64,000 bases of DNA, from positions 234,869-298,868 of the forward strand of contig CAVTWK010000002.1 of assembly GCA_963738485.1 (NCBI GenBank). Reading direction: 5' to 3'. Origin of the DNA: an uncultured Acidobacteriota bacterium (GTDB taxonomy: Bacteria > Acidobacteriota > Vicinamibacteria > Vicinamibacterales > SCN-69-37). The position numbers and the translations under genes are program-made. Each line of letters starts with the position of its first letter. The first letter of the stretch is position 1. Below the pieces are notes generated by a model. That model made no database searches and was not told the DNA's origin. It saw only the letters and a program-made list of their open reading frames with translations. Positions 9,918 through 62,330 of this stretch are shown here, in pieces.

Positions 9918-10000
9918 AGGTCCCTCCCTGACACGGCCGGAAATCGGCTGTGCCGACGTGTCGATCACGTCGTGAATGGAAGGGCCCTTCGCTACGACGG

Positions 10001-10140
10001 TTAGACACCGAAGAGTGGGGACTGACGCAGAAGTCCAGGAACAGACGGTGAAGTGCTGGGGCTGACGGCGAAGTGCTGGGGGCTGAGGGTGCAGTGCGGA
10101 CGCTGACGGTGAAGTGCTGACGAGACGGTGAAGTGCGGCG
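10001..10140 (+). repeat. ~20-bp tandem repeat (unit about CTGACGGTGAAGTGCTGGGG), 6-7 degenerate copies
   Basis: GACGG[TC]GAAGTGC occurs at 10044, 10064, 10104 and 10124 in a 20-nt register. Confidence 0.8.
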
Positions 10141-10150
10141 GTGGCTACAG

Positions 10151-10266
10151 CGGTTTCCACGAGCGTGTCGCGTCGCGCAAGCGCGACTTCCGAGCCGTGA
10201 GCGTCTCGGGCCACACGCGAGCGAGCGAGGGGAGCGCGGCGCGAGGCGACACGCTCGTGGAAACCG
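10151..10266. repeat. long hairpin with perfect 21-bp arms (CGGTTTCCACGAGCGTGTCGC / GCGACACGCTCGTGGAAACCG) and a 74-nt structured loop, immediately 3' of the pntB stop
   Basis: Arms at 10151-10171 and 10246-10266 are exact reverse complements. An inner palindrome GTCGCGCAAGCGCGAC lies at 10170-10185. Confidence 0.85.
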
Positions 10267-10268
10267 GT

Positions 10269-11651
10269 CTAGTGCCCGCCCTCGCCGGTGAGTTGTTTGA
10301 CGACGTCGCCGATGACCTGTTTGGCGTCGCCGAAGAGCATGAGGGTGTTGGGGGCGTAGTAGAGGTCGTTGTCGATGCCCGCGAAGCCGGGGTTCATGCT
10401 GCGCTTGATGGCCAGCACCGTATGCGACTTGTCCGCGTCGATGATCGGCATCCCGTAGATCGGGCTCTTCTCGTCGGTGCGCGCCGCAGGATTGACGACG
10501 TCGTTGGCGCCGATGACGAGCGCGACGCTCACCTGGCCCATCTCCGGGTTGATGTCGTCCATCTCGACGAGCCGGTCGTAGGGGATGTCGGCTTCGGCCA
10601 GGAGGACATTCATATGGCCCGGCATGCGGCCCGCCACCGGGTGCACCGCGAACTTCACGTCCACGCCGCGCTTGGTGAGCTGATCGTAGAGATCGCGCAC
10701 GCGGTGCTGGGCCTGGGCGACCGCCATGCCGTAGCCGGGGATGATCACCACGCTGTCGGCGTTGGTGAGCAGTTCGGCCGCATCGGTCGGCGTCGCGCTC
10801 TTCACCGTCCGCTGCTGGCCGGCTTGGGCGACAGCCTGGACCGATCCGAACGCGCCGAAGAGCACGTTGGTGATCGACCGGTTCATCGCCTTGCACATGA
10901 TGATCGACAGCACGAAGCCGGAGGCGCCGTCCAGCGCGCCGGCCGCGATGAGCAGCTTGTTCTCGAGGACGAACCCCATCGCCACGGCCGACAGCCCGGC
11001 AAACGAGTTCAGGAACGAGATCACGGTGGGCATGTCCGCGCCGCCGATGGGCAGGATCAGCAGCACGCCGAAGGTCAGGGCCAGCACGATCAGGATCGGA
11101 AACGCCCAGGACTGGGTCGGGTCGATCGTGAGCCACACGCCGAGCGCGGCCGCCACGCCGAGCAGGAGGAAGCTGACGATGTTCTGGCCCTTGTAGGTCA
11201 GCGGGCGCGTGGGCATCCACTCGGCCAGCTTGGCCGACGCCAGCAGCCCGCCTGTGCAGGTGAGGCCGCCGAGCAGCACTTCGCCCGCGATGATCGCCAT
11301 GCGGAAGGAGGTCAACTCGCCCTCGCCCAGCCAGAGGTAGTACTTCGCCGTCCCGACGAGCGCGGCGGCCAGACCGCCGAAGGCCTGCGAGAGCCCGGTC
11401 CGTTCCGGCACGGCGGTGAGCGGCACCCGCGCGAGGGGGACGCCGAGCAGGATGCCGGCGACGGCGGCCAGGCCGATCCACTTGTAGGTGACGATCTCCG
11501 GATGGAGCAGCGTGCCGCCCACGGCCAGCGCCATCCCGATGACCGCAGCCATGACGGCCCGCCGGGCGGTCTCCGGCTGGCTCATCCAGCGCAGGGCCAG
11601 GATGAAGAGCGCCGCCGAGACCAGGTAGAGCAGTTCGGTCGCCGTGCTCAC
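10269..11651 (-). CDS. pntB: NAD(P) transhydrogenase subunit beta
   Basis: 460-aa polytopic N-terminal region plus the dIII NADP(H)-binding domain (VIIPGYGMAVAQAQH...GANDVVNPAA). Confidence 0.95.
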   Translation of the reverse strand: MSTATELLYLVSAALFILALRWMSQPETARRAVMAAVIGMALAVGGTLLHPEIVTYKWIGLAAVAGILLGVPLARVPLTAVPERTGLSQAFGGLAAALVGTAKYYLWLGEGELTSFRMAIIAGEVLLGGLTCTGGLLASAKLAEWMPTRPLTYKGQNIVSFLLLGVAAALGVWLTIDPTQSWAFPILIVLALTFGVLLILPIGGADMPTVISFLNSFAGLSAVAMGFVLENKLLIAAGALDGASGFVLSIIMCKAMNRSITNVLFGAFGSVQAVAQAGQQRTVKSATPTDAAELLTNADSVVIIPGYGMAVAQAQHRVRDLYDQLTKRGVDVKFAVHPVAGRMPGHMNVLLAEADIPYDRLVEMDDINPEMGQVSVALVIGANDVVNPAARTDEKSPIYGMPIIDADKSHTVLAIKRSMNPGFAGIDNDLYYAPNTLMLFGDAKQVIGDVVKQLTGEGGH

Positions 11652-14122: not shown

Positions 14123-15421
14123 TGGCCTCGCTCCTGCGGATCTGCACGGCGGGCAGCGTGGACGATGGCAAGAGCACGCTCATCGGCAGGCTGCTCTACG
14201 ACTCGCGCGGCGTCTACGAAGACCAGGTGCGATCGGTCGAGCGCGCCTCGCTCCATCGCAACGCGGGGCCGATCGATTTCTCGCTCTTCACCGACGGCTT
14301 GAGGGCGGAGCGCGAGCAGGGCATCACGATCGACGTGGCGTATCGGTACTTCGCCACGAGCCAGCGTAAGTTCATCCTGGCTGACACGCCGGGCCACGAG
14401 CAGTACACGCGCAACATGGCGACGGGCGCGTCCACGGCCGATGTCGCGATCCTGCTGGTGGACGCGCGGCAGGGCATTCTCGACCAGTCACGCCGGCACG
14501 CGCGGATCGCCTCGCTGCTGGGGATCTCGAGCTTCGTGATCGCGGTCAACAAGATGGACCTCGTCGATTTCGACCGCGGCACCTTCGAGGCGATCCGGGA
14601 CGGTTTCGAGCCGCTTCTGCCGGGCGCCGTGCGCCACGCGATTCCGATCAGCGCCCTGCACGGGGACAACGTCACGGTCCGCAGCGACCGGACACCGTGG
14701 TTCGAGGGCGCGAGCCTGCTCGAGCACCTCGAGCGCGTCGAGGTCGTGCGGAACGCGGCCGCCGGGCCGTTCCGGTTCCCGGTCCAGCTCGTCTCACGCC
14801 CCTCGCACGACTTCCGTGGGTACGCGGGCCAGATCGTCTCGGGCCTGGTTCGGGTGGGCGACCCGGTGACGGCCTGGCCGTCGCGGCGGACCACGACGGT
14901 CAAGCGGATCGTGACGTGGGACGGCGACCTCGACCTGGCATTCGCGCCGATGTCGGTGACGCTCGTCCTCGAGGGCGAAACCGACATCAGTCGCGGCGAC
15001 GTGCTTGCCGACGACACGGTCTCGGCCAGCCGTCGGTTCGAGGCCGACGTCGTCTGGATGGACGAGCGCCCGCTCGACCCGGCGCGGCTCTATCGGCTCA
15101 AGCACCCGTCGGGGTTCGTCAACGCGCATGTGGATCGTCCGCTGCAGCTCAACGAGATTGCGCGCGTCTCGATCGAGGCCTCCCGACCGCTGCTGTTCGA
15201 CCGCTACACCGACGTGCGCGGCATGGGGAGCTTCGTGCTGGTCGATCCGGCCACCAACTTCACGGCCGGGGCGGGCATGATCGCCAATCCGCTCACGGAC
15301 CACCTGGCCACGCGCCACCGCGATCTCGGCGGCCCGCCTTGCGAAGGCGGCACGCGCGGCGGCGACCGAGGCCGACGCCGTCGAAGGCGTCCGGCTCACC
15401 CTCGAGGACCTGCTGTCATGA
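14122..15421 (+). CDS. cysN: sulfate adenylyltransferase subunit 1 (GTPase); 3' end needs a +1 frame correction near 15300-15360
   Basis: G-motifs GSVDDGKST, DTPGHEQY and NKMD. The start overlaps the cysD stop (TGATG). As assembled the frame runs on into cysH, but third-position GC indicates the last ~25 codons are in the +1 frame ending at TGA 15419-15421. Confidence 0.85.
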
Positions 15422-16044: not shown

Positions 16045-16054
16045 TCGTGCCCGA

Positions 16055-16256
16055 GGTTCACCGCGGAGCACACGCAGGACACTCACCTCGGAGCACGCTC
16101 ACGGCGGAGAACACGGAAACACTACGCACCACGGAGGGGCGGAGGACAGAGGTTGGGGTAGGGACGCCGCTTCACCGTGGAACCAGCTTCACCCCGAAGT
16201 GAAGACAGGGGAGTGCCGCCGGCGAGAGCCCGCGAGCTCGCACCGCGGAGTCGCGG
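16055..16256 (-). repeat. cluster of inverted-orientation copies of the CTCCGCGGTGAA module (as TTCACCGCGGAG and variants)
   Basis: TTCACCGCGGAGCA at 16057, CACCTCGGAGCAC at 16084, CACGGCGGAGAAC at 16100, CACCACGGAGGGGCGGAGG at 16128, CACCGCGGAGTCGCGG at 16241. Confidence 0.7.
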
Positions 16257-16279
16257 GGGATGTCGCATGTAGTTGCTGT

Positions 16280-16663
16280 GTGACGCGACGACCCATTCAC
16301 TTGGGGATCCTTCTGCTGGCTGGCGGCAACCTCCTGCCTGCGCCTCTTGACGTCGTCGCCATCCTGCTGGCGGGTGTTCTTCTGTTCGCGTCCGGGTGGG
16401 GGAATAGCCGCGGTTGGCAGAGGTGGTGGCCTCTCTGCTGCAGCGCCCTGGCAGTTCTCGCGTTCGCAGCTCTGAGCTTTCAGGACTCCGACCAAGTGCT
16501 CCGTCGGAATGTCTTGGCTGGGCTGTTCGTGCTGTCTCTGATTGCGGGGCTCGCGCCATCTGTCGCTGGTTTGATCGCGGTGTCGGGGAGGGCGAGCGCG
16601 GCGATCGTCGGCGGGCTTGTGGCCATTCGAGATCTCAGGAAGTCGTCCGCCGGGTCGCCGTAG
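16280..16663 (+). CDS. hypothetical small polytopic membrane protein (start uncertain: GTG 16280 or TTG 16301)
   Basis: The C-terminal part of ORF 15692..16663 is strongly hydrophobic (LGILLLAGGNLLPAPLDVVAILLAGVLLFASGW, WWPLCCSALAVLAFAALSF, VLAGLFVLSLIAGLAPSVAGLIAV). It has more T-ending codons than its neighbours and no recognised family. Confidence 0.35.
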   Translation: MTRRPIHLGILLLAGGNLLPAPLDVVAILLAGVLLFASGWGNSRGWQRWWPLCCSALAVLAFAALSFQDSDQVLRRNVLAGLFVLSLIAGLAPSVAGLIAVSGRASAAIVGGLVAIRDLRKSSAGSP

Positions 16664-16700
16664 CCACTTCGGTCCGGGCGCGCGCCTGTCAGCCAGCTCG

Positions 16701-17067
16701 GTCTCTCCGCGGTGACTCGCCGCGTCTCGCTTTTCGCTCCGCCCCTCCTCGGTGAAGTCCTGTCCGTGACCCTCTGCGACGCCGGTATAGGGACCCGTCG
16801 TGGACGTTCTCGTGCTCCGCGCCCCCGCGGTGAACCCCTGTCCGTGACCCCGCTGCAGCGCCAGCCTGGCGAACCGCCCTAGCCGTTCTTGTGCTCCGCT
16901 TCTCCGCGGTGAATCCCAGCCCTGATATGCCTTGGCGTGTCGGTGGCGAATCGTCCGGTCCGCTTGCGTGCTCCGCCCCTCCGCGGTGAATCCATGCCCT
17001 GGCACTTTGGGGTCCCTATGGTGAACCCCGGTCTGTCAGGGGCCTCCGCCCCTCCGCGGTGAATCCC
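16701..17067 (+). repeat. ~77-bp periodic array: 5-6 degenerate copies of GTGCTCCGCCCCTCCGCGGTGAATCC with variable ~45-bp spacers
   Basis: Copies start at about 16703 (partial), 16734, 16812, 16891, 16968 and 17041, giving spacings of 78, 79, 77 and 73 nt. Confidence 0.85.
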
Positions 17068-17235
17068 GGTCCTTGCGCGCCGCGCCGATCTGCGGTGTAA
17101 TAGCGGTGATGTTCGCCCCCGTGTCCTGCGTCTGTTGCGCCTGTTGTCGGCCCAATGTGGGTCTGGGGCTGCTCGTGCAGGGAACGGACAGGATGCGCTG
17201 ATCGGCGCAACCGTTCAACGCGCAAGGTAGAGACC

Positions 17236-23416: not shown

Positions 23417-23545
23417 GGGACTGACGGTGAAGTCCCGGAACTTCGCTGCGCTTCGCAGAAGTCCCGGCACTGACGGTGAGGTCCCCGAGCGGACGCTCAG
23501 GTCCCGGAGCGGACGGTGAAGTCCGGGAACTGCGTCAGAGATCCG
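23416..23545 (-). repeat. modular repeat block sharing the GGTGAAGTCC / CCGGGACTTC modules with the 53.2-kb and 62.2-kb loci (reverse orientation here)
   Basis: GGTGAAGTCC at 23426 and 23515. GAAGTCCCGG at 23429 and 23459. CTTCGCTGCGCTTCGCAGAAGTCCCGG is the reverse complement of the CCGGGACTTCTGCTGAGCGAAGCGAAG type seen at 62.2 kb. Confidence 0.75.
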
Positions 23546-24974: not shown

Positions 24975-27390
24975 ATGCTCCTGCAGGACGTCCGCTTCGC
25001 GCTGCGTTCCCTCCGCCGTAGTCCGGGTTTCGCCGCAGTCGCGCTGTTGTGCCTGGGGCTGGGCATCGGTGTGACGTCCACGATCTTCAGCATGATCGAC
25101 GGGATCATCCTGAAGCCCATGCCGTATGCGGACCCGGAACGGCTGGTCGTGCCCGTGGGCGTCAATCGGCCACAGGATATCGAGCGCTCGTCGATCTCCT
25201 ACCTCGACTTCACCGACTGGAGGGCGCAGGCGTCGTCCTTTGCCGGGATCGGCGGCGTTCAAGGCCGCAGTCTCACGGTCTCGGACGGATCCGGCGAGCC
25301 GCAGCGCTACCTCGGCGCCCTCGTCAGCTGGGACCTGTTTCCGCTGCTCGGCGTCGCACCGGTCCTCGGGAGTGGTTTCACGGCCGCGCACGACGAGCCG
25401 GGTGCAGAGCGCGTAGCCGTCCTCAGCCACGTGGTCTGGCGTGAGCGCTACCAGAGCGACCCGGGAATCATCGGGCGCAGTGTCCTGATCAATGCGGCGC
25501 CGACGGTCATCATCGGCGTCATGCCCAGGGACTTCGAGTTTCCGGGCACGCAGAAGCTCTGGCTGCCGCTGGGGCCGTTTGCCAACCGGACATCGCGCGA
25601 GGCGCGCACGGTCTCGATGTTCGCGCGGCTGGCGCCCGGCGCCAGCATCGACCGCGCGCGTGCCGAGCTATCGACGGTGGCCGGCATGCTCGCGCGTGAG
25701 CATGCCGCGACGAACGAGGACTGGAGCGCCTCGATCCTGACGCTCCGCGAGTGGTCCGTCCCCGACGACGTCACCCGCGTGCTGTGGCTGATGATGGCCG
25801 GCGTCACGCTGGTGCTCTTCATCGCGTGTTCGAACGTGGCCAACCTCCAGTTGGCGCGCGCCTCCGCGCGTCGTCGCGAGATCTCCGTGCGCGCCGCACT
25901 AGGCGCCGAGCGTCGGCGCATCATCACGCAGTTGCTGACCGAGAGCGTCGTGCTCTCCCTCCTGGCGGTGCCGGTCGGCATCGCGGTGGCCGAGGTGGGC
26001 ACGCGGCTCATCGCGTCGGCGATTCCGCGCGACCAAGTACCGAGCTACATCACGTGGGACGTGGACTATCGCTCGATCCTCTTCACGATGGCCATCGCGG
26101 TGACGACGGCGGTGGTCTTCGGCCTGTTTCCCGCGCTGCAAGCCTCACGTGGCGAACTGCACGGCGACCTGAAGGAAGGCACGCGCGGCAACAGCGTCCG
26201 CCGGTCGCTGCTGCGCAGTTCGCTGGTGGTCGCCCAGGTGTCCCTCGCGATCGTCGCGCTCGTTGGCGCCCTCCTCTTCGTCAAGACGTTCCAGAATCTC
26301 GACTGGTACCGAGGTCGGGTTCGACACGACGCCTTTGATGACCATGCGCTTCTCGATGGGCGGCGACGCCTACGAGCTGCCGGATGCGCGGGCCCGTCGC
26401 GTCGAGGACATCGTCGGGCGTGTCGAGCGGTTGCCGGGCGTGTCAGCGGCCTTCGCGTCCAATCTCGTCCCCATGGGCGGCGGCGGCGGAGGCGGCAACG
26501 TCGACGTCGAGGGCTTCCAGGTGGATCGGGGTCGCGAGCCGGGGATCTCGTTCACCGGCGTGACCCCCGGCTTCTACCGGACCATCGGCGTCAGCCTGGT
26601 GCGCGGTCGTGATTTCACCCTTGCCGAAGGCTGGTCCCGGTCGGGCCTGGCTGTCATCAACCAGACGATGGCCGACCGCTTCTGGAAGGATCGCGATCCG
26701 ATTGGCGGACGCTTCCGCATGGTGCGCGGCGACGCGGTCAACCAGTGGTTTACCGTGATCGGCGTGGCGCGCGACATCAAGCAGGACGACATCGACCCGG
26801 AGGACGAGCCGTTTCCCGCGGCCTATGTGCCCTACCTCTACCAGCAGACCCTCAACACGGGCCTGACGGTGCGGGTCGCCACGGGGGATCCCGCCGCGAT
26901 TACCTCAGCTGTCCGCAGCGAGCTTCGCGCATCGGACAGCAACATCCCGATGTTCCAGGTGGCGACGATGGAAGAGGTGCGCCGCCTCGGTTTCTGGCAG
27001 TTCGCGCTGTTCGGCTGGATCTTCGGCACAATCGGCAGCATCGCCCTCGTGCTGGCCGGCGTGGGCGTCTACGGCGTGCTGTCCTACGCGGTCGCCCAGC
27101 GCACACCGGAGATTGGCGTGCGGATGGCGCTCGGTGCCAGCCAGGCCAGCGTCCTGCGGCTGGTAGTGAGGCAGGGTGTGGGATTGGCGTCCATTGGCGT
27201 CGTGATCGGCCTGGTGCTTTCCGCCCTCGCGATGCCACAGGCGCAGTCGCTGCTCTACAACGTGAGCCCCTTCGATCCGTGGGTGTTCACGGAGGTCGCG
27301 CTGTTCCTGCTCGCCGTTGCGTTCCTCGCCAGCTTCATCCCCGCACGCCGCGCGACCAAGGTGGATCCGCTCACGGCGCTCAGGGGGTAG
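24975..27390 (+). CDS. ADOP-family (MacB-like, duplicated FtsX) ABC permease; frame break near 26300-26312
   Basis: N-terminus [42 protein letters not shown] 24975..26612 and ORF 26263..27390 join at ...FVKTFQNLD / EVGFDTTPLMTMRF. C-terminal FIPARRATKVDPLTALRG. Confidence 0.8.
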
Positions 27391-27817
27391 ATCAGGTCCG
27401 CCGGGTACGGCGGGTACGTCAGGTACAGGGGTGCGACGGGTACCAGGTACGGCGGGTACACCGGTACGGCGGGTACACCGGTGCGCCAGGTCCACCGGCG
27501 CATCAGGTACGCCGGGGCGGCGCGCCTGTGGCCTGCACGGCCACGATGCCGGGGCCGCATGACCTGGCGCACGGGACCCCGCCCCGGAGGCCCTGTTCGC
27601 GAGGCCCACTGGCTTCGAGGCCCCGGAGGACCTGCGGGACGCAGGAACCTGTCGACCCTGAGCACACGGCGCACGCAGTACCCCTCAGACCCTGGCACCC
27701 GTACCCCGGGACCCGTTGTACCCGGGGACCTGTCGTACCGGGGTACCTTTCGTACCCGGGTACCTGGTGCACCCCTGTACCTGCCGTACCCGTGGTACCC
27801 GGCGGACCTGATCTACC
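27386..27817. repeat. 432-bp imperfect palindrome built from GGGTAC/AGGTAC words (left half) and GTACCC/GTACCT words (right half), filling the gap between two convergent ADOP permease genes
   Basis: The outermost 23 bp are exact reverse complements (27386-27408 and 27795-27817) and include both stop codons. Confidence 0.9.
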
Positions 27818-33711: not shown

Positions 33712-33756
33712 GGGTCATTCTACGTGGCGCGATTGGGTCCGGTTGGCCCTGAGGTA

Positions 33757-34106
33757 GTCCCCGTAGCCCGTGCGCCGTTTACAGTGGGCCGTAGCCCGCA
33801 GCCCGTAGCCCGTTCGCCGTTGTCCGTCTGCTGTCTGCGGTCTGCCGTAGCCCGTCTGTCGTCTGCCGAGTCCGTAGCCCGTCGGCCGTGGGTCGTAGTC
33901 TGTAGCCCGTCTGCCGTAGCCCGTTGTCCGTAGCTCGTGGGCCGTCTTGCCGTAGCCCGTGGTCCGTAGCCCGTCTGCCGTCTGCCGTAGCCCGTTCGCC
34001 GTAGCCCGTCTGCCGTCGGCCGTCGGCCGTAGTCCGTAGCCCGTCTGCTGTCTGCCGTCTCCCGTAGCCCGTTTTCCGTCTCCCGTGGCCCGTCTGCCGC
34101 CGTAGT
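33757..34106 (+). repeat. degenerate heptanucleotide array (unit GTNNNCC, i.e. NNNCCGT), about 50 consecutive units, 13 copies of GTAGCCCG
   Basis: Read directly, for example GTCTGCC GTCTGCC GTAGCCC GTTCGCC GTAGCCC GTCTGCC GTCGGCC GTCGGCC GTAGTCC GTAGCCC. It fills the divergent phr / S9 peptidase intergenic region. Confidence 0.9.
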
Positions 34107-44390: not shown

Positions 44391-44415
44391 CTAATGCAGC
44401 GAAGGAACCCAACAC

Positions 44416-45918
44416 ATGACACCGACAGCCGTTGCCACTGAACACGTGTTCGACCTGGCCCGCAAGGCGGGCCGCCAGCCCTACAAGGTCGCCGACCTCG
44501 GTCTCGCCGAGTGGGGCCGCAAGGAAATGCGCCTCGCCGAAGACGAGATGCCTGGCCTGATGGCCCTGCGCGAGCGCTATGCCGCGACCAAGCCGCTGGC
44601 CGGCGCGCGTGTGATGGGCTCCCTGCACATGACCATCCAGACCGCGGTGCTCATCGAGACGCTCGACGCGCTCGGCGCCGATGTCCGCTGGGTCTCCTGC
44701 AACATCTTCTCGACCCAGGATCACGCGGCCGCGGCCGTCGTCGTCGGCCGGCCGGAGACGGGCGGCACGCCCGAGAAGCCGCGCGGCATCCCCGTGTTCG
44801 CCTGGAAGGGTGAGACGCTCGAAGAATACTGGTGGTGCACGACCGAAGCGCTCGTGTGGCCCGACCAGTCCGGCCCGACGCTCATCGTCGATGACGGCGG
44901 CGACGCGACCCTCTTCGTGCACAAGGCCTACGAGTTCGAGAAGGCCGGCAAGGTCCCCGCGTTCGACGAGGCCAGCGAGCCCGAAGAGTGGGGCGTGATC
45001 CTCGAGTCGATCAAGGCCGAGCTGAAGGCGCGTCCTGGCGTGTGGTCGAAGGTCGCCAAGGGCATCCGCGGCGTGTCGGAAGAGACGACGACCGGCGTGC
45101 ATCGCCTCTACGAGATGATGAACGCGGGCACGCTCCTGTTCCCGGCGATCAACGTCAACGACTCGGTGACCAAGAGCAAGTTCGACAACATCTACGGCTG
45201 CCGGCACTCGCTGCCCGACGGCCTGGCCCGCGCGACGGACGTGATGCTCGGCGGCAAGATGGCCGTCGTGTTCGGCTTCGGCGAAGTCGGCAAGGGCTGC
45301 GCCCAGGCGCTCCGCGGCCAGGGCACGCGGGTCGTCATCACCGAGATCGACCCGATCTGCGCGCTGCAGGCGGCGATGGAAGGCTACGAGGTCGTCACGA
45401 TCGACGACGTGATCGACCGGGCGGACATCTTCATCACGGCGACGGGCAACTTCAACATCCTGACCGTCGAGCACATGGCGCGGATGAAGGACAAGGCCAT
45501 CGTGGGGAACATCGGCCACTTCGACAACGAGATCGACATGGCCGGCCTCAAGAAGGTGCCGGGCATCAAGAAGGTCAACATCAAGCCGCAGTACGACGAA
45601 TGGCAGTTCCCGGACGGCCACAGCGTGCTAGTGCTTGCCGAAGGCCGCCTGCTGAACCTCGGCTGCGCGACCGGGCATCCGAGCTTCGTCATGTCGGCGT
45701 CGTTCACCAACCAGGTGCTGGCGCAGATCGAGCTGCACGAGAACGCGGAGAAGATTGGCAAGAAGGTGCTGATGCTCCCGAAGAAGCTCGACGAGGAAGT
45801 GGCGCGCCTCCATCTCGCCAAGCTCGGCGTGCGGTTGACCACGCTCAGCGATGAGCAGGCGAAGTACATCGGCGTCTCGGTCGATGGGCCGTACAAGCCA
45901 GAGCACTACAGGTACTGA
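44416..45918 (+). CDS. ahcY: adenosylhomocysteinase
   Basis: 500 aa. [45 protein letters not shown], and C-terminal KPEHYRY. Confidence 0.97.
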
Positions 45919-46016
45919 ACAGGTACGCCGGGTACTCCAGGTACGCCGGGTACTCCAGGTACACGGGTACGCCAGGTACTCGGGTACACCAGGTACTCGG
46001 GTACGACAGGTACGCA
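45911..46016 (+). repeat. 17-18-bp tandem repeat (CAGGTACGCCGGGTACTC-like), about 6 copies, beginning inside the last codons of ahcY
   Basis: CAGGTAC recurs at 45909, 45920, 45938, 45956, 45973, 45990 and 46007. Confidence 0.85.
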
Positions 46017-46054
46017 CTGCACGGGCGGCGCGAGGGATTGCGCCGCCCGTGCAG
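46017..46054. terminator. GC-rich 15-bp-stem hairpin (CTGCACGGGCGGCGC-GAGGGATT-GCGCCGCCCGTGCAG) between the convergent ahcY and zeta-toxin genes; no T-tract
   Basis: Perfect inverted repeat, read directly. Confidence 0.5.
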
Positions 46055-51688: not shown

Positions 51689-53014
51689 ATGAGCGAATCG
51701 ATCGGATCGTCCGGCAAGGGCATGAAGCTGCACACCAAGATCCTGATCGGCCTGGCCCTGGGCCTGCTGGTCGGCGTCGCCACGAACCTCACGGTCGGCG
51801 CCGATCACCGTGGCGTCACCTGGGTGAACACCTACGTCGCGGGCCCGGTGGGCCAGGTGTTCCTGCGCATGCTCTTCATGGTCGTCATGCCGCTGGTCTT
51901 CGCGTCCATTTCACTCGGCATCGCGGGCCTCGGTGACATCCGGAAGGTCGGGCGCGTCGGCGGCAAGGCGATCGGCTACTTCCTCGCGACCACGGCCCTG
52001 GCGGCGACCCTCGGCCTGGTCGTCGTCAACATCTCGGCGCCCTGGGAGCGGGTGACGCCGGAGACGCGGACCGCGCTGATGACCCGGTTTGCCGACGACG
52101 CCTCCACGCGCGTGCAGGCGGCAGCCACGACCGCCCAGTTCGGCCCGGAGACGTTCGTCAACATCGTGCCGCGCAACCCGATCGATGCGGCGGCGAAGAC
52201 CGATATGCTGGCCGTCATCTTCTTTGGAGTCATGTTCGGGGCAGCCCTGACGTTGATGGAACCGGCCCGTGCCAAGCCAATGATCGACTGGCTCGAGGCC
52301 CTGAACGACGTGGTGGTTCACATCATTCACTTCGCCATGCGGCTGGCACCGTACGGAGTGGCAGCCCTGATCTTCACCGTGTCGTCGCGGTTCGGGTTCG
52401 ATCTGATGATCGCGGTGGCCGCCTTCGTGGCCACGGTGCTCGTCGCGCTGCTGCTGCACGTCGTGATCACGCTCTTCCTGATCATCCGGTTCGGCATCGG
52501 GCTCTCGCCCTTCACGTTCGTCTCGCGCGTCCGGGCCGCACTCGTCACCGCGTTCTCGACCAGCTCGAGCAGCGCGACGCTGCCCACCGGTCTGGACGTC
52601 GCCGAACTGCAGCTCGGCATCCCCCGGCGCATCGCAGGGTTCGTGCTGCCCATCGGCAGCACGATGTGCATGAACGGCACGGCGATCTTCGAGGGCATCA
52701 CGGTCATCTTCCTGGCCGAGATCTTCGGCATCGACCTGACCCTGCCCCAGATGGCGATCGTCATGGTGATGTCGGTCATCACCGCCGTCGGTGCGGCCGG
52801 CGTGCCGGGCGGGTCGATTCCGCTGCTCGTCGGCATCCTCGTGATGTTCGGCGTGCCAGGCGAGGCCATCGCCATCGTCCTCGGCGTCGATCGGATCCTC
52901 GACATGTCGCGGACGACCGTCAACGTCTTCGGCGACCTGACCGCCGCGGCCTGGGTCGCCCGCAGTGAAAAGGCGTGGACTCCCGCCGACCTGCCGCAGG
53001 GAGTCAGGGAGTGA
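51689..53014 (+). CDS. dicarboxylate/amino acid:cation symporter (DAACS family)
   Basis: FSTSSSSATLP, MNGTAIFEG, VGAAGVPGGS and DRILDMSRTTVNVFGD are hallmark motifs. Confidence 0.9.
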   Translation: MSESIGSSGKGMKLHTKILIGLALGLLVGVATNLTVGADHRGVTWVNTYVAGPVGQVFLRMLFMVVMPLVFASISLGIAGLGDIRKVGRVGGKAIGYFLATTALAATLGLVVVNISAPWERVTPETRTALMTRFADDASTRVQAAATTAQFGPETFVNIVPRNPIDAAAKTDMLAVIFFGVMFGAALTLMEPARAKPMIDWLEALNDVVVHIIHFAMRLAPYGVAALIFTVSSRFGFDLMIAVAAFVATVLVALLLHVVITLFLIIRFGIGLSPFTFVSRVRAALVTAFSTSSSSATLPTGLDVAELQLGIPRRIAGFVLPIGSTMCMNGTAIFEGITVIFLAEIFGIDLTLPQMAIVMVMSVITAVGAAGVPGGSIPLLVGILVMFGVPGEAIAIVLGVDRILDMSRTTVNVFGDLTAAAWVARSEKAWTPADLPQGVRE

Positions 53015-53029
53015 AATGCGCGTCAGGTG

Positions 53030-53250
53030 CTCAAGGGGAAAGTGCCAGAGGTGCTGGCTGGAGCACTTGAGGTGCTGGAGCGAATAGCATGCGAGGTGCT
53101 GGAGCGAAGAGCACTTGAGGTGCTGGCGGGAGAGGCACGTGAGGTGCTGGAGCACGAGCACCTGAGGTGCGGCCGGACATCGCCGTCGGTACGGGGACCT
53201 GAGTGCCTTTCCACCGGGACTTGGGCGTGAGTTCCGGGACGTCTGCGTAA
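53030..53250 (+). repeat. 24-bp tandem repeat built on GAGGTGCTGG (5 copies plus 1 variant), followed by a CCGGGACTT-module block shared with 62.2 kb
   Basis: GAGGTGCTGG at 53048, 53069, 53093, 53117 and 53141; GAGGTGCGG at 53164. CCGGGACTTGGGCGTGAGTTCCGGGAC at 53214-53240 matches 62261-62287 at 25 of 27 positions. Confidence 0.85.
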
Positions 53251-53255
53251 GTCCC

Positions 53256-55055
53256 CTAATCCAGGTGGCCGCGCTCGGAGTCGCCCATCTCGACCGTGCC
53301 GGACGGGAAGTACTCCTTCCAGCGGCGCGTGACGGTGGCGGCCACGTCCTCGCGGCACGTGACCTCCTTCGGATACCAGGGCTTCATGCGTGCGTCGATG
53401 ACGACCGGCGCCGAGTACGCGATGTGGTTGCGCACAACCCGCAGGCCGGCCGCGTGGATGTCTGCCCCGGGCTCGAAGCGCGTGAACGTCGTCCACAGGA
53501 AGTTCATCGGACTCCGCGTCGCGCGCGCCGCATCGTCGCTGATCACCACGAGCGGCCAGCCGGTGAACGCGGGATGCGACGCGAAGCGGGCCGCCGCGCC
53601 CGGTTCGTCCGCATAAGCGGGTGCACTGACGACGAGGCAGCCGCCGCAGAAGACCTGTGCGTCGGCCAGGCCCTGCGGCACATCGGTGGCCGTGAACGAG
53701 CGGGGCAGGTCGCGCACGGCGGGTCCCAGTCCGAGCCAGACGCCCTTCGACCCCTTGTTCACCTCGGGACCGCTGTAGTCGAGCGTGTCCATCGAGAGGT
53801 TCGAGAAGACGTACAGGTCCGTCTCCGGGTTCGAGCGGGCGAGCACGTGCTCGAGCGTCGCGCGGAAGTCCTTGAGATCGACGGTCTGGTCGGTCACCAG
53901 CAGGAACTTGGTGAGGGACAGCTGGCCCTCACCGAGAATCCGGAAGGCACTGGCCATCGCCTCTCGGGCGTAGCGTTGCTTGACGACGGCGGCGGCGAGC
54001 GAGTGGTAGCCCGTTTCGCCGTACGACCATAGCTGCTGCACGGCCGGCATCACGAGCGGGAAGAGCGGCGACAGCAGTTCCTGCAGCAGGTCGCCGATGA
54101 AGAAGTCCTCCTGGCGCGGTTTGCCCACGACCGTGGCCGGGAACATCGCGTCGCGTCGCCGGGCGATCTGCTGGACCTCGAAGACCGGATAGTCGTGCTG
54201 GAGCGAGTAGTAGCCGTAGTGATCGCCGAACGGCCCCTCGGGTCGGCGCACGCGCGGGGCGACCTGGCCGATCAGGGCCAGCTCGGCGTTGGCGACCAGC
54301 GGGTGCGGCCAGGGTCCCTCGGCGAGTCGCAGGCGCTCGCCCGCGATGAGCGAGGCGAGCATGAGCTCCGGCACGTTCTCCGGCAGCGGTGCGATGGCCG
54401 ACAGGATCAGCGCGGGAGGTCCGCCGAGGAACACCGTGACGGGTAACGCCTCGTTGCGCGCTTCGGCGACCTGATAGTGGAAGCCGCCGCCCTTGCCGAT
54501 CTGCCAATGCATCCCGGTGCGCCTGGCGTCGTGCACGTGCAACCGATACATGCCGAGGTTGTGTCCCCGGCCGTCGGGATGCTGGGTGTAGACGAGCGGC
54601 AAGGTGATGAACGGACCGCCGTCCTCCGGCCAGGTCGTCATCGCCGGCAGGCGGTCGAGACGGACATCCGTCGTCACGACCTCGGTGACCGGTCCGCCAC
54701 GGCCGCGCTTGAGGCCGACTTTGAGCAGGTCGCGTCCCACGTCGCGCGCGCCCCAGAGCTTGGCCGGCGTCGGCGGCAGGATCGTCTCGACCAGGTGGAC
54801 GAGGCGCTTGATCAGCTGGAGCGGCCGCGTCCCGAACGCGATCTCCGCGCGGCGTGCGGTGCCAAAGAGATTCGTGACGAGTGGCAGATCCGCGCCTTCG
54901 ATGTTCCTGAAGATCAGGGCCGGCCCGCCGGCGGCGATCACGCGTCGATGAATCTCCGCGGCCTCCTGGACGGCAGACACCGGGGCGCCAATCTCGACGA
55001 CGTCGTGCGAGCGGCGCAGGGAGTTGAGAAACGCGCGCAGATCGGGCAGGGACAT
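53256..55055 (-). CDS. UbiD family decarboxylase
   Basis: About 600 aa. LRAFLNSLRRSHDVVEIGAPVS, GGPFITLPLVYTQHPDGRGHNLGMYRL and FGDHYGYYS. Start chosen at the ATG in frame with the conserved N-terminus. Confidence 0.9.
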   Translation of the reverse strand: MSLPDLRAFLNSLRRSHDVVEIGAPVSAVQEAAEIHRRVIAAGGPALIFRNIEGADLPLVTNLFGTARRAEIAFGTRPLQLIKRLVHLVETILPPTPAKLWGARDVGRDLLKVGLKRGRGGPVTEVVTTDVRLDRLPAMTTWPEDGGPFITLPLVYTQHPDGRGHNLGMYRLHVHDARRTGMHWQIGKGGGFHYQVAEARNEALPVTVFLGGPPALILSAIAPLPENVPELMLASLIAGERLRLAEGPWPHPLVANAELALIGQVAPRVRRPEGPFGDHYGYYSLQHDYPVFEVQQIARRRDAMFPATVVGKPRQEDFFIGDLLQELLSPLFPLVMPAVQQLWSYGETGYHSLAAAVVKQRYAREAMASAFRILGEGQLSLTKFLLVTDQTVDLKDFRATLEHVLARSNPETDLYVFSNLSMDTLDYSGPEVNKGSKGVWLGLGPAVRDLPRSFTATDVPQGLADAQVFCGGCLVVSAPAYADEPGAAARFASHPAFTGWPLVVISDDAARATRSPMNFLWTTFTRFEPGADIHAAGLRVVRNHIAYSAPVVIDARMKPWYPKEVTCREDVAATVTRRWKEYFPSGTVEMGDSERGHLD

Positions 55056-55094
55056 GGGGCAGGGACATGGTAACGCTGGACGTCTGGGCAAATG

Positions 55095-55270
55095 AAGATT
55101 GACCGATCGCGCGATTGAGGATTGATTGAGCGGATTGAGGCTTGGAGGATCGCGTGATTGCAGAGGGCGGCTCGCATCGCCGGGATGCTCTCAATCGCCC
55201 GATCCGCAATCCAGAAATCGTTCAATCAATCCGCAATCAAGAGGTCCCACAATCCTCCGATTGCAGCGGT
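55095..55270. repeat. GATTG-word block (left) facing a CAATC-word block (right); imperfect inverted repeat in the divergent ubiD / rluA-like intergenic region
   Basis: The reverse complement of the left arm (GATCGCGCGATTGAGGATTGATTGAGC, 55105-55131) matches GTTCAATCAATCCGCAATC (55220-55238) at about 17 of 19 positions. Confidence 0.75.
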
Positions 55271-60309: not shown

Positions 60310-60327
60310 AGGAGAACACGTCCGCCG

Positions 60328-60981
60328 ATGAGCCCCTATTTCGTCCACGTCGGCTACGTGCTTACGCTGGCCGCCTTCGTCACCCGCGATGTGCTGCTGC
60401 TGCGCGGTCTTCTGGTCTGTGCGCAGCTGATCGTCACCATGTATGCATGGAGCATCGGCGCCTTGCCGATCGCGTCCTGGAACGGTCTGTTCGCCGTCAT
60501 CAACACCGGATGGGTGGTCAGGATTCTCCGCGAACGGCGTGCCGTGGTCCTGCCGCCCGACCTGCGTGATCTGCATGCCCGTCACTTCGCCGTGCTCACC
60601 CCGCCGGAGTTCCTGCGCTGGTGGACCCTCGCCGAGCGAAAGACCGTGCGCGACGTGGTGCTCGCCTCCGAAGGGGTCGCGCCGGACGCCCTGTATTTCG
60701 TGCTTCGCGGCCAGGTCCAGGTGCGCCAGCGCGGTGTCGTGATTGCCGAGCTGCCGACGGGCTTCTTCGTGGCCGAGATGAGCTTGCTGACCGGGGAACT
60801 CCCGTCCGCTGACGCCGTGGCCGACGGCGAGATCGAGGTGATGCGCTGGCCGGTCCAGCAGATGCGCGACCTGCGGCAGCGCAACCCGCTGCTCTGGACC
60901 AAGCTCCAGTCGATCCTGGGGCACGACCTGGTCGAGAAGCTCAAGCGCAGCGCCACGCGGCAGGTCCATCCGGCCATCTGA
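60328..60981 (+). CDS. membrane protein with a C-terminal cyclic-nucleotide-binding domain
   Basis: Three N-terminal hydrophobic helices are followed by LYFVLRGQVQV...GFFVAEMSLLTGELPSADAVA, a cNMP-binding fold. Confidence 0.75.
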   Translation: MSPYFVHVGYVLTLAAFVTRDVLLLRGLLVCAQLIVTMYAWSIGALPIASWNGLFAVINTGWVVRILRERRAVVLPPDLRDLHARHFAVLTPPEFLRWWTLAERKTVRDVVLASEGVAPDALYFVLRGQVQVRQRGVVIAELPTGFFVAEMSLLTGELPSADAVADGEIEVMRWPVQQMRDLRQRNPLLWTKLQSILGHDLVEKLKRSATRQVHPAI

Positions 60982-61078
60982 GGCGCCCTCTCTCTCGATG
61001 GCGCGCCGTTCGGAGTAGAATCGCGCCGCCCGCCGGGCGTGCCGGCCCGCTCCAGCGTCTGGATCGGGGGCGCCCGAC

Positions 61079-62002
61079 GTGCCGGAGCTGATGATGCGTC
61101 GATTGCTGAAGTTCGCGGCCTGGGTCGTGGCGATCCTGCTCGGCCTCGTGGCCTTGGCGGCACTCGTGGTCTATCTGGGCGTCAACCGGATGCTCGCGGC
61201 CACGGTCACCGTGCCCGTCCCCGTCGAACCGATTGTCATTCCCACGGGGGACCCGGCGGCTCTGGCCCGCGGGCAGTACCTCGTCGACCACGTGATGGGC
61301 TGCAAGGTATGCCATGCGCCGGACTTCGGAGGGCGAGCCGAGGTCGATGACGCGCTGGTGGGGCGTCTATGGGCGCCCAACCTGACGTTGGGCCAGGGCT
61401 CGGCGACGCGGAACTACACACCCGTGGATTGGACCCGATCGATCCGCCACGGCGTCGGGACTGACGGCCGTCGCCTGATCCTGATGCCGAGCGAGGACTA
61501 CTTCGGGTTCAGCAACGAGGATCTCGCCGCCGTGGTCGCCTACGTCACGTCGATGCCGCCCGTCGATCGCCACGACGAGGGCATCAAGGTCGGGCCGCTC
61601 GGACGCGTGTTGCTGTATACCGAACAGATCCGGTTCGCGTTCGACACCATCGACCACACCCGTTCACGTTCCGGGGCCAAGCCGTCGGCGGCGGCCGAGT
61701 GGGGCGCCGTGATGATCGGCGCCTGCATGGGGTGCCACGGTCCGACGCTGTCAGGCGGCCCGATTCCCGGAGCGCCTCCCGACTGGCCCCCAGCGCGCAA
61801 CCTCACGCGGCACGAAACAGGCCTGCGCGGCTGGACGTACGCGCAGTTCTCGCAGGCGATCCGGGAGGGACGACGCCCGGACGGGACCATGCTTTCGACC
61901 GTGATGCCCTGGAAGGCGTACGCCGGCATGACCGACCCGGATGTACAGGCCCTCTGGGCCTACCTCCAGACCGTCGAGCCCCAGCCGCTCGGCGGACGGT
62001 AG
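61079..62002 (+). CDS. membrane-anchored dihaem c-type cytochrome
   Basis: TM anchor, plus two CxxCH motifs (GCKVCH and GCMGCH). Confidence 0.8.
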   Translation: MPELMMRRLLKFAAWVVAILLGLVALAALVVYLGVNRMLAATVTVPVPVEPIVIPTGDPAALARGQYLVDHVMGCKVCHAPDFGGRAEVDDALVGRLWAPNLTLGQGSATRNYTPVDWTRSIRHGVGTDGRRLILMPSEDYFGFSNEDLAAVVAYVTSMPPVDRHDEGIKVGPLGRVLLYTEQIRFAFDTIDHTRSRSGAKPSAAAEWGAVMIGACMGCHGPTLSGGPIPGAPPDWPPARNLTRHETGLRGWTYAQFSQAIREGRRPDGTMLSTVMPWKAYAGMTDPDVQALWAYLQTVEPQPLGGR

Positions 62003-62004
62003 GA

Positions 62005-62330
62005 GGGCAGGGCACGGCACGGACAGTGACGTGCGGGAGTGAAGGGCACAGCACGCACATCATGAGGTGCTGGTGCTGACAGTGATGTGCCGGAGTGACG
62101 GGCACCTGAGGTGCACACGGACGGTGACGTGCAGGGAGTGACGGGCACCTGAGGTGCACACGGATTGGACCTGGGCGTCAGTGCCGGGACTTCGCCGAGC
62201 GCAGCGAGGTACCGGGACTTGAGCGTCAGTTCCGGGACTTCTGCTGAGCGAAGCGAAGCACCGGGACTTGGGCGTCAGTCCCGGGACTTCGCCGAGCGCA
62301 GCGAGCCCCCGGGACTTCGCCCCCCGTGAG
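62005..62330 (+). repeat. composite repeat block: GGAGTGACGGGCACCTGAGGTGCACACGGA x2 (perfect, 43-nt register), then three CCGGGACTT-module units including a 36-bp repeat with 1 mismatch
   Basis: 30-mers at 62092-62121 and 62135-62164. GGGCGTCAGT[GC]CCGGGACTTCGCCGAGCGCAGCGAG at 62173-62208 and 62270-62305. Confidence 0.9.

Follow-up and report, generated by a model that had tools for sequence, protein, structure and literature searches.

The closest known kinds to the repeat arrays described here are, on our best reading, long simple sequence repeats (of the cyanobacterial STRR and Xanthomonas GGGAATC type) and REP/BIME elements. Long simple sequence repeats, built of 5-11-nt units, were surveyed in Mrazek 2007, as relayed in summary form by PMC4679880 and PMC4692102, and the summary given in PMC4679880 reports period 7 as the commonest among them. 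The examples used for comparison were the cyanobacterial STRR heptamers (GGGGAYT), Xanthomonas GGGAATC and Beggiatoaceae TAACTGA. In Xanthomonas and Nostoc, heptamer arrays are ~90% intergenic and mostly lie 0-50 nt from a stop codon or overlap it, and in Xanthomonas they form inverted-repeat pairs (PMC4692102).

The window analysed here, i.e., the whole stretch of 64,000 nucleotides, comes from an uncultured soil acidobacterium of the order Vicinamibacterales, and its intergenic gaps contain stuttering arrays of 5-10-base words together with small hairpin modules. An earlier note on this DNA had reported such arrays at nine loci, covering ~2.5 kb or about 4 percent of the window. Direct reading and Tandem Repeats Finder (TRF) located repeat arrays at 9/9 of these positions, which together amount to 2,320 bases or 3.6% of the window, and their signal was above that of all shuffle and simulation controls. 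The stutter score (6-mers present at least three times per 120 nt) was 0.45-0.93 at the array loci and reached at most 0.41 in order-2 Markov simulations, its sole further peak in the window being a GGC-rich coding stretch (34391-34690). On a crude gene map, ~9 of the 19 gaps longer than 200 nt hold arrays, so the note's figure of about half of the long gaps was roughly right. The features are as follows, with no strand assigned unless one is given:

10015..10145: direct array of one GGGACTGACGCAGAAGTCC hairpin module and then ~5 units of ~20 nt (GACGGTGAAGTGCTG...), in the gap from the pntB stop to the start of a TonB-like gene, with both genes on the minus strand (direct reading; TRF period 20, 4.7 copies)
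10137..10280: separate long hairpin that overlaps the pntB stop, its 42-nt arms being 86% complementary, and is not a word array (inverted repeat I1)
16045..16215: left arm of the 16 kb locus, with TTCACCGCGGAG-type words spaced ~20 nt apart, beginning 11 nt past the TGA stop of a CysN/PAPS-reductase fusion gene (direct reading)
16268..16663, plus strand: small hydrophobic ORF of 131 aa between both 16 kb arms, a putative gene with no Pfam match, and 3' of it a terminator-like hairpin at 16708-16724
16690..17075: right arm of the 16 kb locus, holding the core GCTCCGCCCCTCCGCGGTGAAYCCC in five imperfect copies (at 16735, 16814, 16893, 16968 and 17043), spaced ~75-79 nt (direct reading; TRF period 79)
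23417..23540: GGGACT-N8-AGTCCC / GAAGTCCCGG array, beginning with the base that follows the TAA stop of the sulfite reductase gene
27388..27520: left arm of the large palindrome, GGTAC words with periods 9, 17 and 33, and covering the TAG with which the upstream FtsX/MacB-type permease gene ends
27521..27684: non-repetitive centre of the palindrome
27685..27815: right arm of the large palindrome, GTACC words, ending at the TAG stop of the convergent permease gene 27813-30083 (minus strand)
33755..34105: heptamer array CCGTAGC/CCGTCTG in a divergent gap, ~45 units with a 35-nt higher-order unit (reading, TRF)
45905..46016: GGTAC array, 17-nt unit CAGGTACSCCGGGTACNC, 90% matches (reading, TRF)
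46017..46054: hairpin with a perfect 15-bp stem, immediately 3' of the GGTAC array
52990..53175: GAGGTGCTGG / CACCTGAGGTGC array whose 24- and 48-nt units each form a small hairpin, with a CAGGGAGT doublet overlapping the stop of a dicarboxylate symporter gene (reading, TRF)
53176..53256: two GGGACT-N8-AGTCCC-type modules, the last base just before the TAG stop of a convergent UbiD-family gene
55085..55270: palindrome with GATTGAG words on the left and CAATC words on the right, in the divergent gap between a UbiD-family and an RluA-type gene (direct reading)
62003..62166: GACAGTGAYGTGCCGGAGTGACGGGCACCTGAGGTGCACACG units of 43 nt, 91% matches, directly after the TAG stop of a cytochrome c gene (reading, TRF)
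62167..62330: three 48-nt units GGGACTTGGGCGTCAGTCCCGGGACTTCGCCGAGCGCAGCGAGGCACC, two small hairpins per unit

That the dominant word is locus-specific, and that modules are nevertheless common to several loci, had both been noticed earlier and were borne out, with 44 12-mers common to different loci compared to a control mean of 2.5 (max 10). The window holds three multi-locus families, namely the GGGACT-N8-AGTCCC hairpin module (4 loci), the GAGGTGC module (2 loci) and GGTAC words (2 loci), and three single-locus arrays with private words. The module coordinates quoted earlier proved exact in the window sequence: GGTGAAGTCC at 16751, 23426 and 23515; its variant GGTGAAGTGC at 10047, with further copies at 10108 and 10127; CACCTGAGGTGC at 53159, 62103 and 62146; and a 27-mer at 53214 and 62261. 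GGTAC matches likewise concentrate at two loci, 27 kb (23) and 45 kb (10), the 45905..46016 array having 10-mers in common with the 27 kb arms. GTAGCCC is present in 13 copies inside 33.76-34.07 kb, and GACGGTGAAGT (≤1 mismatch) matches 13 times in the window versus 1.2 expected. The GGGACT-N8-AGTCCC module (≤1 mismatch) matches 7 times versus 0.14 expected, at four loci and in both orientations, with 1/7 matches (at 31687) outside the arrays, and it was absent from 108 comparison loci (~1.3 Mb). Two relationships had been missed: the 23.4 kb array repeats the 62.2 kb unit in inverted form (18 common 10-mers, opposite orientation), and the 53 and 62 kb loci have the same two-part architecture with the same two-module order. 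The 10015..10145 array aligns with the modules at 23.4, 53.2 and 62.2 kb, and the two 16 kb arms (16045..16215 and 16746-17061) give inverted matches of 70-95%, with 17 common 9-mers in opposite orientation. Module copies of different loci are only ~50-70% alike, with many indels between them.

Also missed was that arrays begin at or overlap stop codons, as they do at 23.4, 27.4, 27.8, 45.9, 53.0, 53.25 and 62.0 kb and commonly among the relatives, as in L004, L008, L012, L041 and L071. At 45.9 kb the first array word overlaps the last ahcY codons and the stop (TAC AGG TAC TGA), the ahcY tail CAGGTACTGA matching the array word, and in L012 the repeat unit includes the gene's last 7 codons and stop. 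The dominant 6-mer was common to the array and the gene's last 15 nt in 5/32 arrays versus 6/160 control windows, a tail-seeding signal confined to a minority of arrays, and a gene's type of stop codon did not significantly match the stop triplets found in its array (P = 0.15). Seeding from gene tails may be a general rule.

Some arrays are inverted pairs and others are direct and unstructured. Of the palindromes suspected earlier, those at 27.39-27.82 kb and 55.09-55.26 kb are clear and that at 16.05/16.7-17.07 kb is weak. The largest, at 27.39-27.82 kb, is a 436-nt hairpin with a stop codon exactly at each end, folds as a whole region at -303 kcal/mol (z -13.4) and carries TAGATCAGGTCCGCCGGGTAC perfectly at both outer ends, a sequence with no further copy in the 64-kb window or in 1.3 Mb of relatives. 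Its arms are identical over 23 nt from each stop codon, and arm-to-arm identity falls toward the centre. As the flanking permease genes, though paralogous, have only 32% protein identity, recent homogenisation or insertion would be needed to explain the identical ends. The hairpins at 45.9, 55.1 and 62 kb have z of -4 to -9, including the 45.9 kb array with its adjoining hairpin (z -8.8) and 55085..55270, with 51-nt arms that are 71% complementary (z -3.9, -3.5). The 10.0 kb array is unstructured (z +0.4, +2.3) and reaches z -3.7 when the hairpin at 10137..10280 is added, the direct 33.8 kb array is also unstructured (z +2.2, +0.8), and two arrays are less folded than their own shuffles. No array contains a T tract, and arrays are found in convergent, divergent and tandem gaps, in line with the earlier view that they are not simple terminators.

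Comparable arrays, mostly of other words, were present in dozens of independent related metagenome assemblies, some of them on contigs as long as 2.7 and 3.7 Mb. Arrays occupy 3.0% of the non-coding but 0.36% of the coding bases (~8-fold) in 1.37 Mb of Vicinamibacterales-like sequence, where many gaps are 85-100% filled, 15% of convergent gaps hold arrays versus 7% of other gaps, and period 7 is the commonest. The length polymorphism that had been predicted was seen between two related assemblies, L018 and L022, which differ by whole-word indels at two orthologous arrays with ~93% identical flanks, and in which arm lengths vary independently. The distribution is patchy, with arrays blooming in some lineages and none in most relatives, including L109. 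Vocabulary is common to different genomes 3.4 times more often than in a reversed-sequence null. The 16 kb core CTCCGYGGYGA(N)TYCC occurred, among the 1.37 Mb, only at the window's 16 kb locus and in L078, a common core of 15-16 nt in a genome whose UbiD protein is only ~75% identical (the closest UbiD among the relatives compared being at most 86% identical to the window's). The 33.8 kb heptamer forms an array in L041 too, the 55.1 kb word was found in L071 at ~3600, and the permease-family 3' end carries arrays in five genomes, with unrelated words.

Like long simple sequence repeats, the arrays consist of head-to-tail 7-9-nt words, are strongly intergenic, differ in copy number between relatives and are of a type typical of large, high-GC, non-pathogen genomes (PMC4692102, PMC4679880), and most lie within 0-50 nt of a stop codon or overlap it, sometimes as inverted pairs (PMC4692102). 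Unlike these repeats, which use essentially one word genome-wide, the arrays have a dominant word per locus, their copies are much less perfect and mixed with longer 20-79 nt units, and they fill whole gaps; G-quadruplex potential, central in Xanthomonas and Nostoc, is by eye no general feature of the window words. Thus, the earlier statement that no described element class matches was only partly right: CRISPR and classical MITEs do fit poorly, but long simple sequence repeats and REP/BIME elements are close known kinds. The arrays are best regarded as bacterial intergenic repeats of known types, in a form specific to the lineage, rather than as a new element class, and we consider it rather probable that they are extragenic, minisatellite-like long simple sequence repeats mixed with small REP-like hairpin modules and generated by replication slippage.

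Slippage alone does not account for the same modules at four loci in both orientations or for the two-module order repeated at 53 and 62 kb. The core common to the window and L078, the cross-genome vocabulary and the 27 kb arm identity also speak against this reading. Most of these observations, together with the module's absence from relatives, the sharp boundary of the 27 kb palindrome and the blooming or absence of arrays by lineage, would also suit a reading in which the modules belong to the REP/REPIN or MITE kind of non-autonomous mobile element. A tyrosine (RAYT/TIRYT-type) or other transposase, its gene lying elsewhere in the genome, would move them, and the arrays would be insertion clusters that slippage later blurred. 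Acidobacteria are reported to have RAYT-like genes with terminal-repeat families of their own, and the modules at 23.4, 53.2 and 62.2 kb behave like REP/BIME clusters, being small hairpins in extragenic clusters, chiefly 3' of genes and in convergent gaps, in both orientations, in inverted pairs able to fold into larger structures and in lineage-specific families, yet they fail the strict tagged-REP definition (PMC3733652). Their stems measure just 5-6 bp, CGTC is found within the loop and no unpaired GTAG/CGTC tag stands beside the stem, the units are far more degenerate, and the pure 5-9-nt word stutters are not REP-like. No RAYT gene or other such transposase was found among the ~30 candidate window ORFs, a subset of all ORFs, scanned against Pfam. 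The 27 kb unit (27.39-27.82 kb, 428 nt) does resemble a MITE in its perfect 21-nt terminal inverted repeat and sharp ends, but it is single-copy, shows no evident target-site duplication and has arms of word repeats rather than unique sequence. Since three loci use private words, inter-locus copies are so divergent and relatives vary by graded word counts rather than presence/absence, we regard this reading as unlikely, though it deserves some weight.

It is improbable that the arrays are kept for a cis-acting function, with long hairpins ending or processing convergent transcripts and direct arrays serving as binding tracts or spacers (candidates being RNase III substrates, 3'-end protectors, protein- or Rho-binding tracts and tunable promoter spacers). 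The very stable hairpins exactly between stop codons, the excess in convergent gaps, the recurrence at the permease-family 3' end and the inter-genome word sharing are consistent with such a role, as is the 10.0 kb array, whose minus strand is C-rich and unstructured, as expected for a Rho loading site. In L004, a 23S_rRNA_IVP-family gene lies between inverted arms, a layout that presumably resembles the stem-plus-ORF arrangement of ribosomal intervening sequences. However, an Rfam search matched no family to the arrays, T tracts are lacking although a canonical terminator-like site exists at 17236-17255, arm lengths change independently between L018 and L022, and most relatives have no arrays, so that any function would be dispensable. 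That nothing in sequence or structure unites the arrays, two of which fold less than their shuffles do, speaks for a generating process in common rather than a common function. Assembly artefact or chance compositional low complexity is hardly credible: two window genes (17286-18717 and 24975-27390) are seemingly frameshift-split, so the assembly may contain indel errors, but copies are imperfect and individually distinct, like arrays recur in independent assemblies (at orthologous positions in L018 and L022), and all shuffle and Markov controls were exceeded.

Under the slippage reading, a seed (the upstream gene's last codons and stop, or a ~20-nt hairpin module dispersed over several loci of this genome) would be tandemly duplicated through replication slippage or unequal recombination, and the copies would drift and then re-amplify as 17-, 35- or 48-nt higher-order units. 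By TRF, the match percentage climbs with period, from 71% at 9 nt to 90% at 17 nt at 45.9 kb and from 67% at 7 nt to 82% at 35 nt at 33.9 kb. The array would expand up to sequence under selection and halt there, which would explain why arrays have a stop codon at one end and a stop or start codon at the other. Facing arrays of complementary words would turn the gap into one long imperfect hairpin, with an unstable centre open to foreign genes. A putative 3'-end hairpin, convergent-transcript barrier or RNase III substrate role would be secondary.

Borg repeats, found in an archaeal element, are perfect and recently formed; by comparison, the copies here are degenerate and often inverted. Borg extrachromosomal elements, as described in PMC9879509, show two likenesses, namely pervasive tandem repeats of local origin and unit lengths in multiples of 3 that can enter ORFs, as at L071 14480-14620, where a repeat array extends into an ORF as a low-complexity protein linker.

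The array feature is real and non-random. An earlier note had claimed stuttering arrays of short words at nine intergenic loci, and all nine were seen both by direct reading and with Tandem Repeats Finder (TRF), with every module quoted there recovered in its place; together they measured 2,320 bases, or 3.6% of the window, close to the ~2.5 kb (~4%) that had been estimated. The stutter score (6-mers occurring at least three times in 120 nt) was 0.45-0.93 at the array loci, compared with a ceiling of 0.41 in order-2 Markov simulations of the window, and the sole further peak was a GGC-rich coding stretch (34391-34690). This low-complexity GGC/GCC-rich stretch, whose period is divisible by 3, lies within ORF 34161-35336 (no Pfam match) and is presumably coding and Gly-rich. 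TRF periods in the arrays were 7, 9 and others, in runs longer than chance and with copy-to-copy matches of 58-90%. The match percentage climbed with the period, from 9 to 17 nt at 45.9 kb and from 7 to 35 nt at 33.9 kb, a higher-order pattern expected of satellite-like amplification.

The dominant words were likewise found to be locus-specific, at least six different ones being present within 64 kb, and the modules common to several loci exceeded the controls: 44 12-mers were common to array loci (control mean 2.5, control maximum 10). Allowing at most one mismatch, GGGACT-N8-AGTCCC matched seven times in the window versus 0.14 expected (one of the seven, at 31687, lies outside the arrays), and GACGGTGAAGT matched 13 times versus 1.2 expected. 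The loci group into three families, each found at more than one locus, plus three private arrays.

Array families and private arrays in the window
Family 1, at 10.0, 23.4, 53.2 and 62.2 kb: 20-nt hairpin module GGGACT-N8-AGTCCC in CCGGGACTTC context
Family 2, at 53.0 and 62.0 kb: GAGGTGCTGG / CACCTGAGGTGC, small hairpins
Family 3, at 27.4/27.7 kb and 45.9 kb: GGTAC words, 17-nt unit
Private array, 33.8 kb: CCGTAGC/CCGTCTG heptamers
Private array, 55.1 kb: GATTGAG/CAATC
Private array, 16 kb locus (left arm 16045-16215, right arm 16690-17075): left, TTCACCGCGGAG-type words; right, a 25-nt core in five copies spaced 75-79 nt apart

At the 16 kb locus the left and right arrays face each other around a small hydrophobic ORF (16268-16663, forward strand). 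Alignment and 18 common 10-mers in opposite orientation identify the 23.4 kb array as an inverted copy of the 62.2 kb locus's 48-nt unit. At 23.4 and 53.25 kb the family 1 module abuts a stop codon with the same end, in each gene's sense orientation, and family 2 comes before family 1 at both 53 and 62 kb, in identical order and orientation.

Folding against shuffles bore out the claim that several of the arrays are palindromic. The segment 27385-27820 forms a single hairpin (-303 kcal/mol, z = -13.4), each arm of which starts at the TAG stop of one of two convergent FtsX/MacB-type permease paralogs; its outer 21 nt, TAGATCAGGTCCGCCGGGTAC, are identical at both ends and were found nowhere else searched, and arm-to-arm identity falls toward a 164-nt non-palindromic centre. 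Since the flanking permeases share just 32% protein identity, this palindrome is much younger than the gene duplication. Excess structure was moderate at the 45.9 kb array with its adjoining perfect hairpin (z -8.8), as well as at 62 kb (z -4.9), 55.1 kb (z -3.9) and 53 kb (z -3.4). The 10.0 and 33.8 kb arrays folded as well as their own shuffles or worse, and so we rejected one common RNA or DNA structure for all arrays; the property that unifies them is tandem word repetition, not structure.

The arrays are also not simple terminators, in line with the earlier reading: no T-tract terminator was predicted within the word repeats of any window array, and an intrinsic terminator, defined as a GC-rich hairpin followed by a T tract, does not describe them. 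The nearest predicted terminator-like site (16708-16724) lies just inside the 16.7 kb arm span, upstream of the first core repeat. A canonical terminator-like hairpin and T tract, AGGCCCGGGATTCCGGGCCT TTTGCTTTTT, was observed at 17236-17255, within 17080-17265 in the sulfur-assimilation cluster and ~30 nt ahead of the PALP gene's ATG; no Rfam family matches it, and it may represent a leader/attenuator or the 3' terminus of a small RNA. A covariance-model search of the window against Rfam gave no match at gathering thresholds and, at E up to 1, a single spurious microRNA match outside the arrays.

The statement that no described class matches the arrays was not supported, the nearest described class being long simple sequence repeats with 5-11-nt units, which are found typically in large genomes of high GC content and among which heptamers are the most numerous (Mrazek 2007, as summarised in PMC4679880 and PMC4692102). 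In Xanthomonas (GGGAATC) and Nostoc (GGGGAYT), such arrays are ~90% intergenic, vary in length by species and lie mostly 0-50 nt from a stop codon or overlap it, and those of Xanthomonas are often paired as inverted repeats (PMC4692102). Our arrays resemble this class in their head-to-tail copies of 5-11-nt units in runs beyond chance, their mainly non-coding location, the predominance of period 7 and a copy number that differs between relatives. Unlike STRR and Xanthomonas-type heptamer arrays, they have no single near-perfect genome-wide word, showing instead at least six dominant words with matches of 58-90%.

The poor fit to REP/BIME elements stood in part: the tagged-REP definition failed, but the hairpin modules are like REP/BIME in position, orientation pattern and lineage specificity. 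The unit form of these elements, a 20-40-nt imperfect palindrome, extragenic and clustered in alternating orientation, was found at 23.4, 53 and 62 kb in the GGGACT-N8-AGTCCC and GCACCTGAGGTGC modules, and is absent from the word arrays of GGTAC, CCGTAGC and GATTGAG. A REP tag is an unpaired GTAG or CGTC beside the stem; CGTC families have 8-9-bp stems opening with A-T pairs, and Thauera GTAG-1 REPs have 5-bp stems only (PMC3733652). The modules, in contrast, have 5-6-bp stems starting with AG/GG, carry CGTC in the loop and lack an external tag. REP/BIME elements typically come in hundreds of copies per genome with an associated RAYT gene, and the window, 64 kb of a 439.5 kb contig, had no RAYT gene among its ORFs scanned against Pfam. 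MITEs and CRISPR arrays fitted as poorly as had been judged. MITEs are defined by terminal inverted repeats, target-site duplication and multiple similar copies, and here a terminal inverted repeat was present at 27 kb only, with no further copies and no clear target-site duplication. A CRISPR array has near-identical 23-47-nt direct repeats that alternate with unique spacers about as long, and in most cases cas genes close by; the five cores at 16.7-17.07 kb differ mutually, two of the 'spacers' are homologous, and Pfam scans of the window ORFs found no cas domains. A literature search found no description of such arrays or intergenic repeats in Acidobacteriota or Vicinamibacterales.

Across a comparison set of 109 loci (~1.3 Mb) from genome and metagenome assemblies, similar arrays were common yet patchy, with 28 of the 52 loci of at least 12 kb having none; the window ranks fourth. 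L109, a locus with a UbiD identity of 85%, had no arrays in 20 kb, and no synteny around the UbiD gene was shared with the closest UbiD relatives (at most 86% identical). Array words mostly differ from genome to genome.

Array words in comparison loci
L008: CACGGATT
L004: AACGACGGG
L009: GGAGGCC
L071: GGGTGCG at four loci, GACTCCTAACTCCT at a fifth
L018 and L022: CTGAACC
L066: CAGAACC

In all sequence, arrays cover 3.0% of non-coding and 0.36% of coding bases (~8-fold), are found in 15% of gaps between convergent genes, 7.5% of those between divergent genes and 7.1% of those between tandem genes, and often occupy 85-100% of the gap, the most frequent period across loci being 7. Length polymorphism, predicted earlier, was seen in relatives of the window genome: L018 and L022, whose flanks are ~93% identical, carry the same two arrays, differing by whole-word insertions or deletions. 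Inverted array pairs anchored at two stop codons also occur in L004, L008, L011 and L078, and the centres of such pairs can contain genes.

Selfish-looking genes occupy the centres of two stop-to-stop palindromic arrays: a four-helix-bundle gene of the 23S_rRNA_IVP family in L004 (12262-12890) and broken insertion-sequence fragments, including an HTH_29 match, in L008 (6131-7150). In L005, inverted arrays CCAAATCTCC and GGAGATTTGG (6785-6830 and 9100-9170) flank a whole DPP-IV-like peptidase gene, and the 5' and 3' ends of its transcript could therefore pair. A 9-nt-period GGTGCGGCA array in L071 (14480-14620) lies inside an ORF, where it reads as a Gly/Ala-rich linker (AGAGTPGAAGAAGAAGAGATGATGAAGA), and an inverted copy of its words occupies the non-coding gap just upstream (14141-14280); as this predicted reading shows, arrays can become absorbed into proteins.

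Taken as a whole, the arrays are best explained as slippage-driven minisatellites together with small dispersed hairpin modules, and as a variant of known extragenic repeats that is specific to the lineage, uses several words and is palindromic in part. At ahcY, the final codons with the stop (TAC AGG TAC TGA) match the array word CAGGTAC. If the HYRY C-terminus of S-adenosylhomocysteine hydrolase is as widely conserved as it seems, the ahcY tail either seeded the array or fixed where it arrived, and not the reverse. In L012 (2430-2560), a 31-nt unit in four tandem copies includes the final seven codons of an FtsX/MacB permease gene together with its TGA stop, and so clearly exemplifies a repeat that arose from the end of a gene; the heptamer array of L041 begins inside a gene's end. 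The dominant 6-mer was common with the gene's last 15 nt in 5 of 32 stop-adjacent arrays, versus 6 of 160 control windows. A matching stop triplet, the sharper prediction of tail seeding, did not reach significance (same as the preceding gene's stop in 10 of 16, versus 7.7 expected, P = 0.15). Stop triplets are about twice as many in arrays as in other downstream regions, with a weak sense-strand bias. Read by eye, the GGTAC array after ahcY has no in-frame stops, and the idea of backup stops was rejected; so was a restriction-site decoy, GTAC being 7-fold denser in arrays yet solely through the GGTAC loci, and DNA uptake sequences were dropped because these are a single genome-wide word.

Slippage leaves unexplained how modules were dispersed to four loci in both orientations, why their order is conserved at 53 and 62 kb, why the 15-16-nt core CTCCGYGGYGA(N)TYCC is found, within the sequence collected, in the window and L078 only, and why dominant 7-mers are common between genomes in 34 array pairs (including two L018/L022 orthologue pairs) versus 10 under a reversed-sequence null. 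Part of this vocabulary sharing could arise if GC-rich codons followed by TGA or TAG acted as seeds, and what remains points to a degree of copying from one locus to another, whether by transposition, by ectopic conversion or by microhomology-mediated template switching. For this reason the alternative that the modules are REP/MITE-like copied elements stays alive. Slippage with dispersed hairpin modules is the account that we prefer. Between different genera, identical or near-identical words of the core were observed at 16902/17052 of the window and 3062-3162 of L078, CCGTAGC at 33.8 kb and in L041 (1340-1405), and GATTGAG at 55.1 kb and in L071 (~3600); none of the explanations tested here gives a full account of this recurrence.

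The stop-to-stop hairpins, whose function is putative, are the part of the feature most worth experiment. It is conceivable, and we think improbable, that the palindromic word arrays are a maintained Vicinamibacterales system and not repeat debris, in which long double-stranded stems, anchored exactly at stop codons, would be processed (e.g. by RNase III) to insulate neighbouring transcripts, selfish genes (four-helix-bundle IVS-type genes, insertion sequences) would use the centres as landing pads, and different genera would have a limited vocabulary (CACGGAG, GATTGAG, CCGTAGC, CGGTGAAnTCCC) in common, conserved and spread through an unrecognised copying process. Vicinamibacterales abound in soil, and nearly all knowledge of them comes from metagenomes. 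In practical terms, the arrays break short-read assemblies, give rise to spurious ORFs and could serve as strain-typing markers; for repeat biology, they present minisatellites that are seeded by the ends of genes, become long hairpins by mirroring and are now and then taken into proteins as linkers. Their patchy, bloom-like spread among related lineages offers a natural comparison that could reveal which repair or recombination functions restrain repeats, and that could test whether long stop-to-stop hairpins play any part in ending convergent transcription in those high-GC bacteria that rarely use T-tract terminators.

The window itself is mostly 67-71% G+C, and Pfam scans of its ORFs indicate a chromosomal gene content of the ordinary kind: a cluster for sulfate assimilation that contains a CysN/PAPS-reductase fusion and sulfite reductase, the transhydrogenase subunit PntB, S-adenosylhomocysteine hydrolase (ahcY), a decarboxylase of the UbiD family, DAHP synthase and several FtsX/MacB-type permeases. 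The best relatives of permease 27813-30083 (reverse strand) are in metagenome-assembled genomes of Vicinamibacterales (Acidobacteriota), at no more than 65% protein identity, and those of the UbiD protein reach 86% (83% in one set of fetched metagenome loci). For the window's UbiD protein itself, one contig is on record, 439,526 bp long. Two genes are apparently split by frameshifts, at 17286-18717, where a PALP (cysteine-synthase-like) domain spans ORFs 17286-18005 and 17572-18717, and at 24975-27390, where a two-module FtsX/MacB permease spans ORFs 24975-26612 and 26263-27390 in different frames; both look like either pseudogenes or assembly indel errors. The region 40000-48000 is lower in G+C (63-66%), holds small genes whose matches are weak and antitoxin-like (PhdYeFM, 46755-47111; DUF6290/TacA-like, 47226-47723) and may be acquired DNA.
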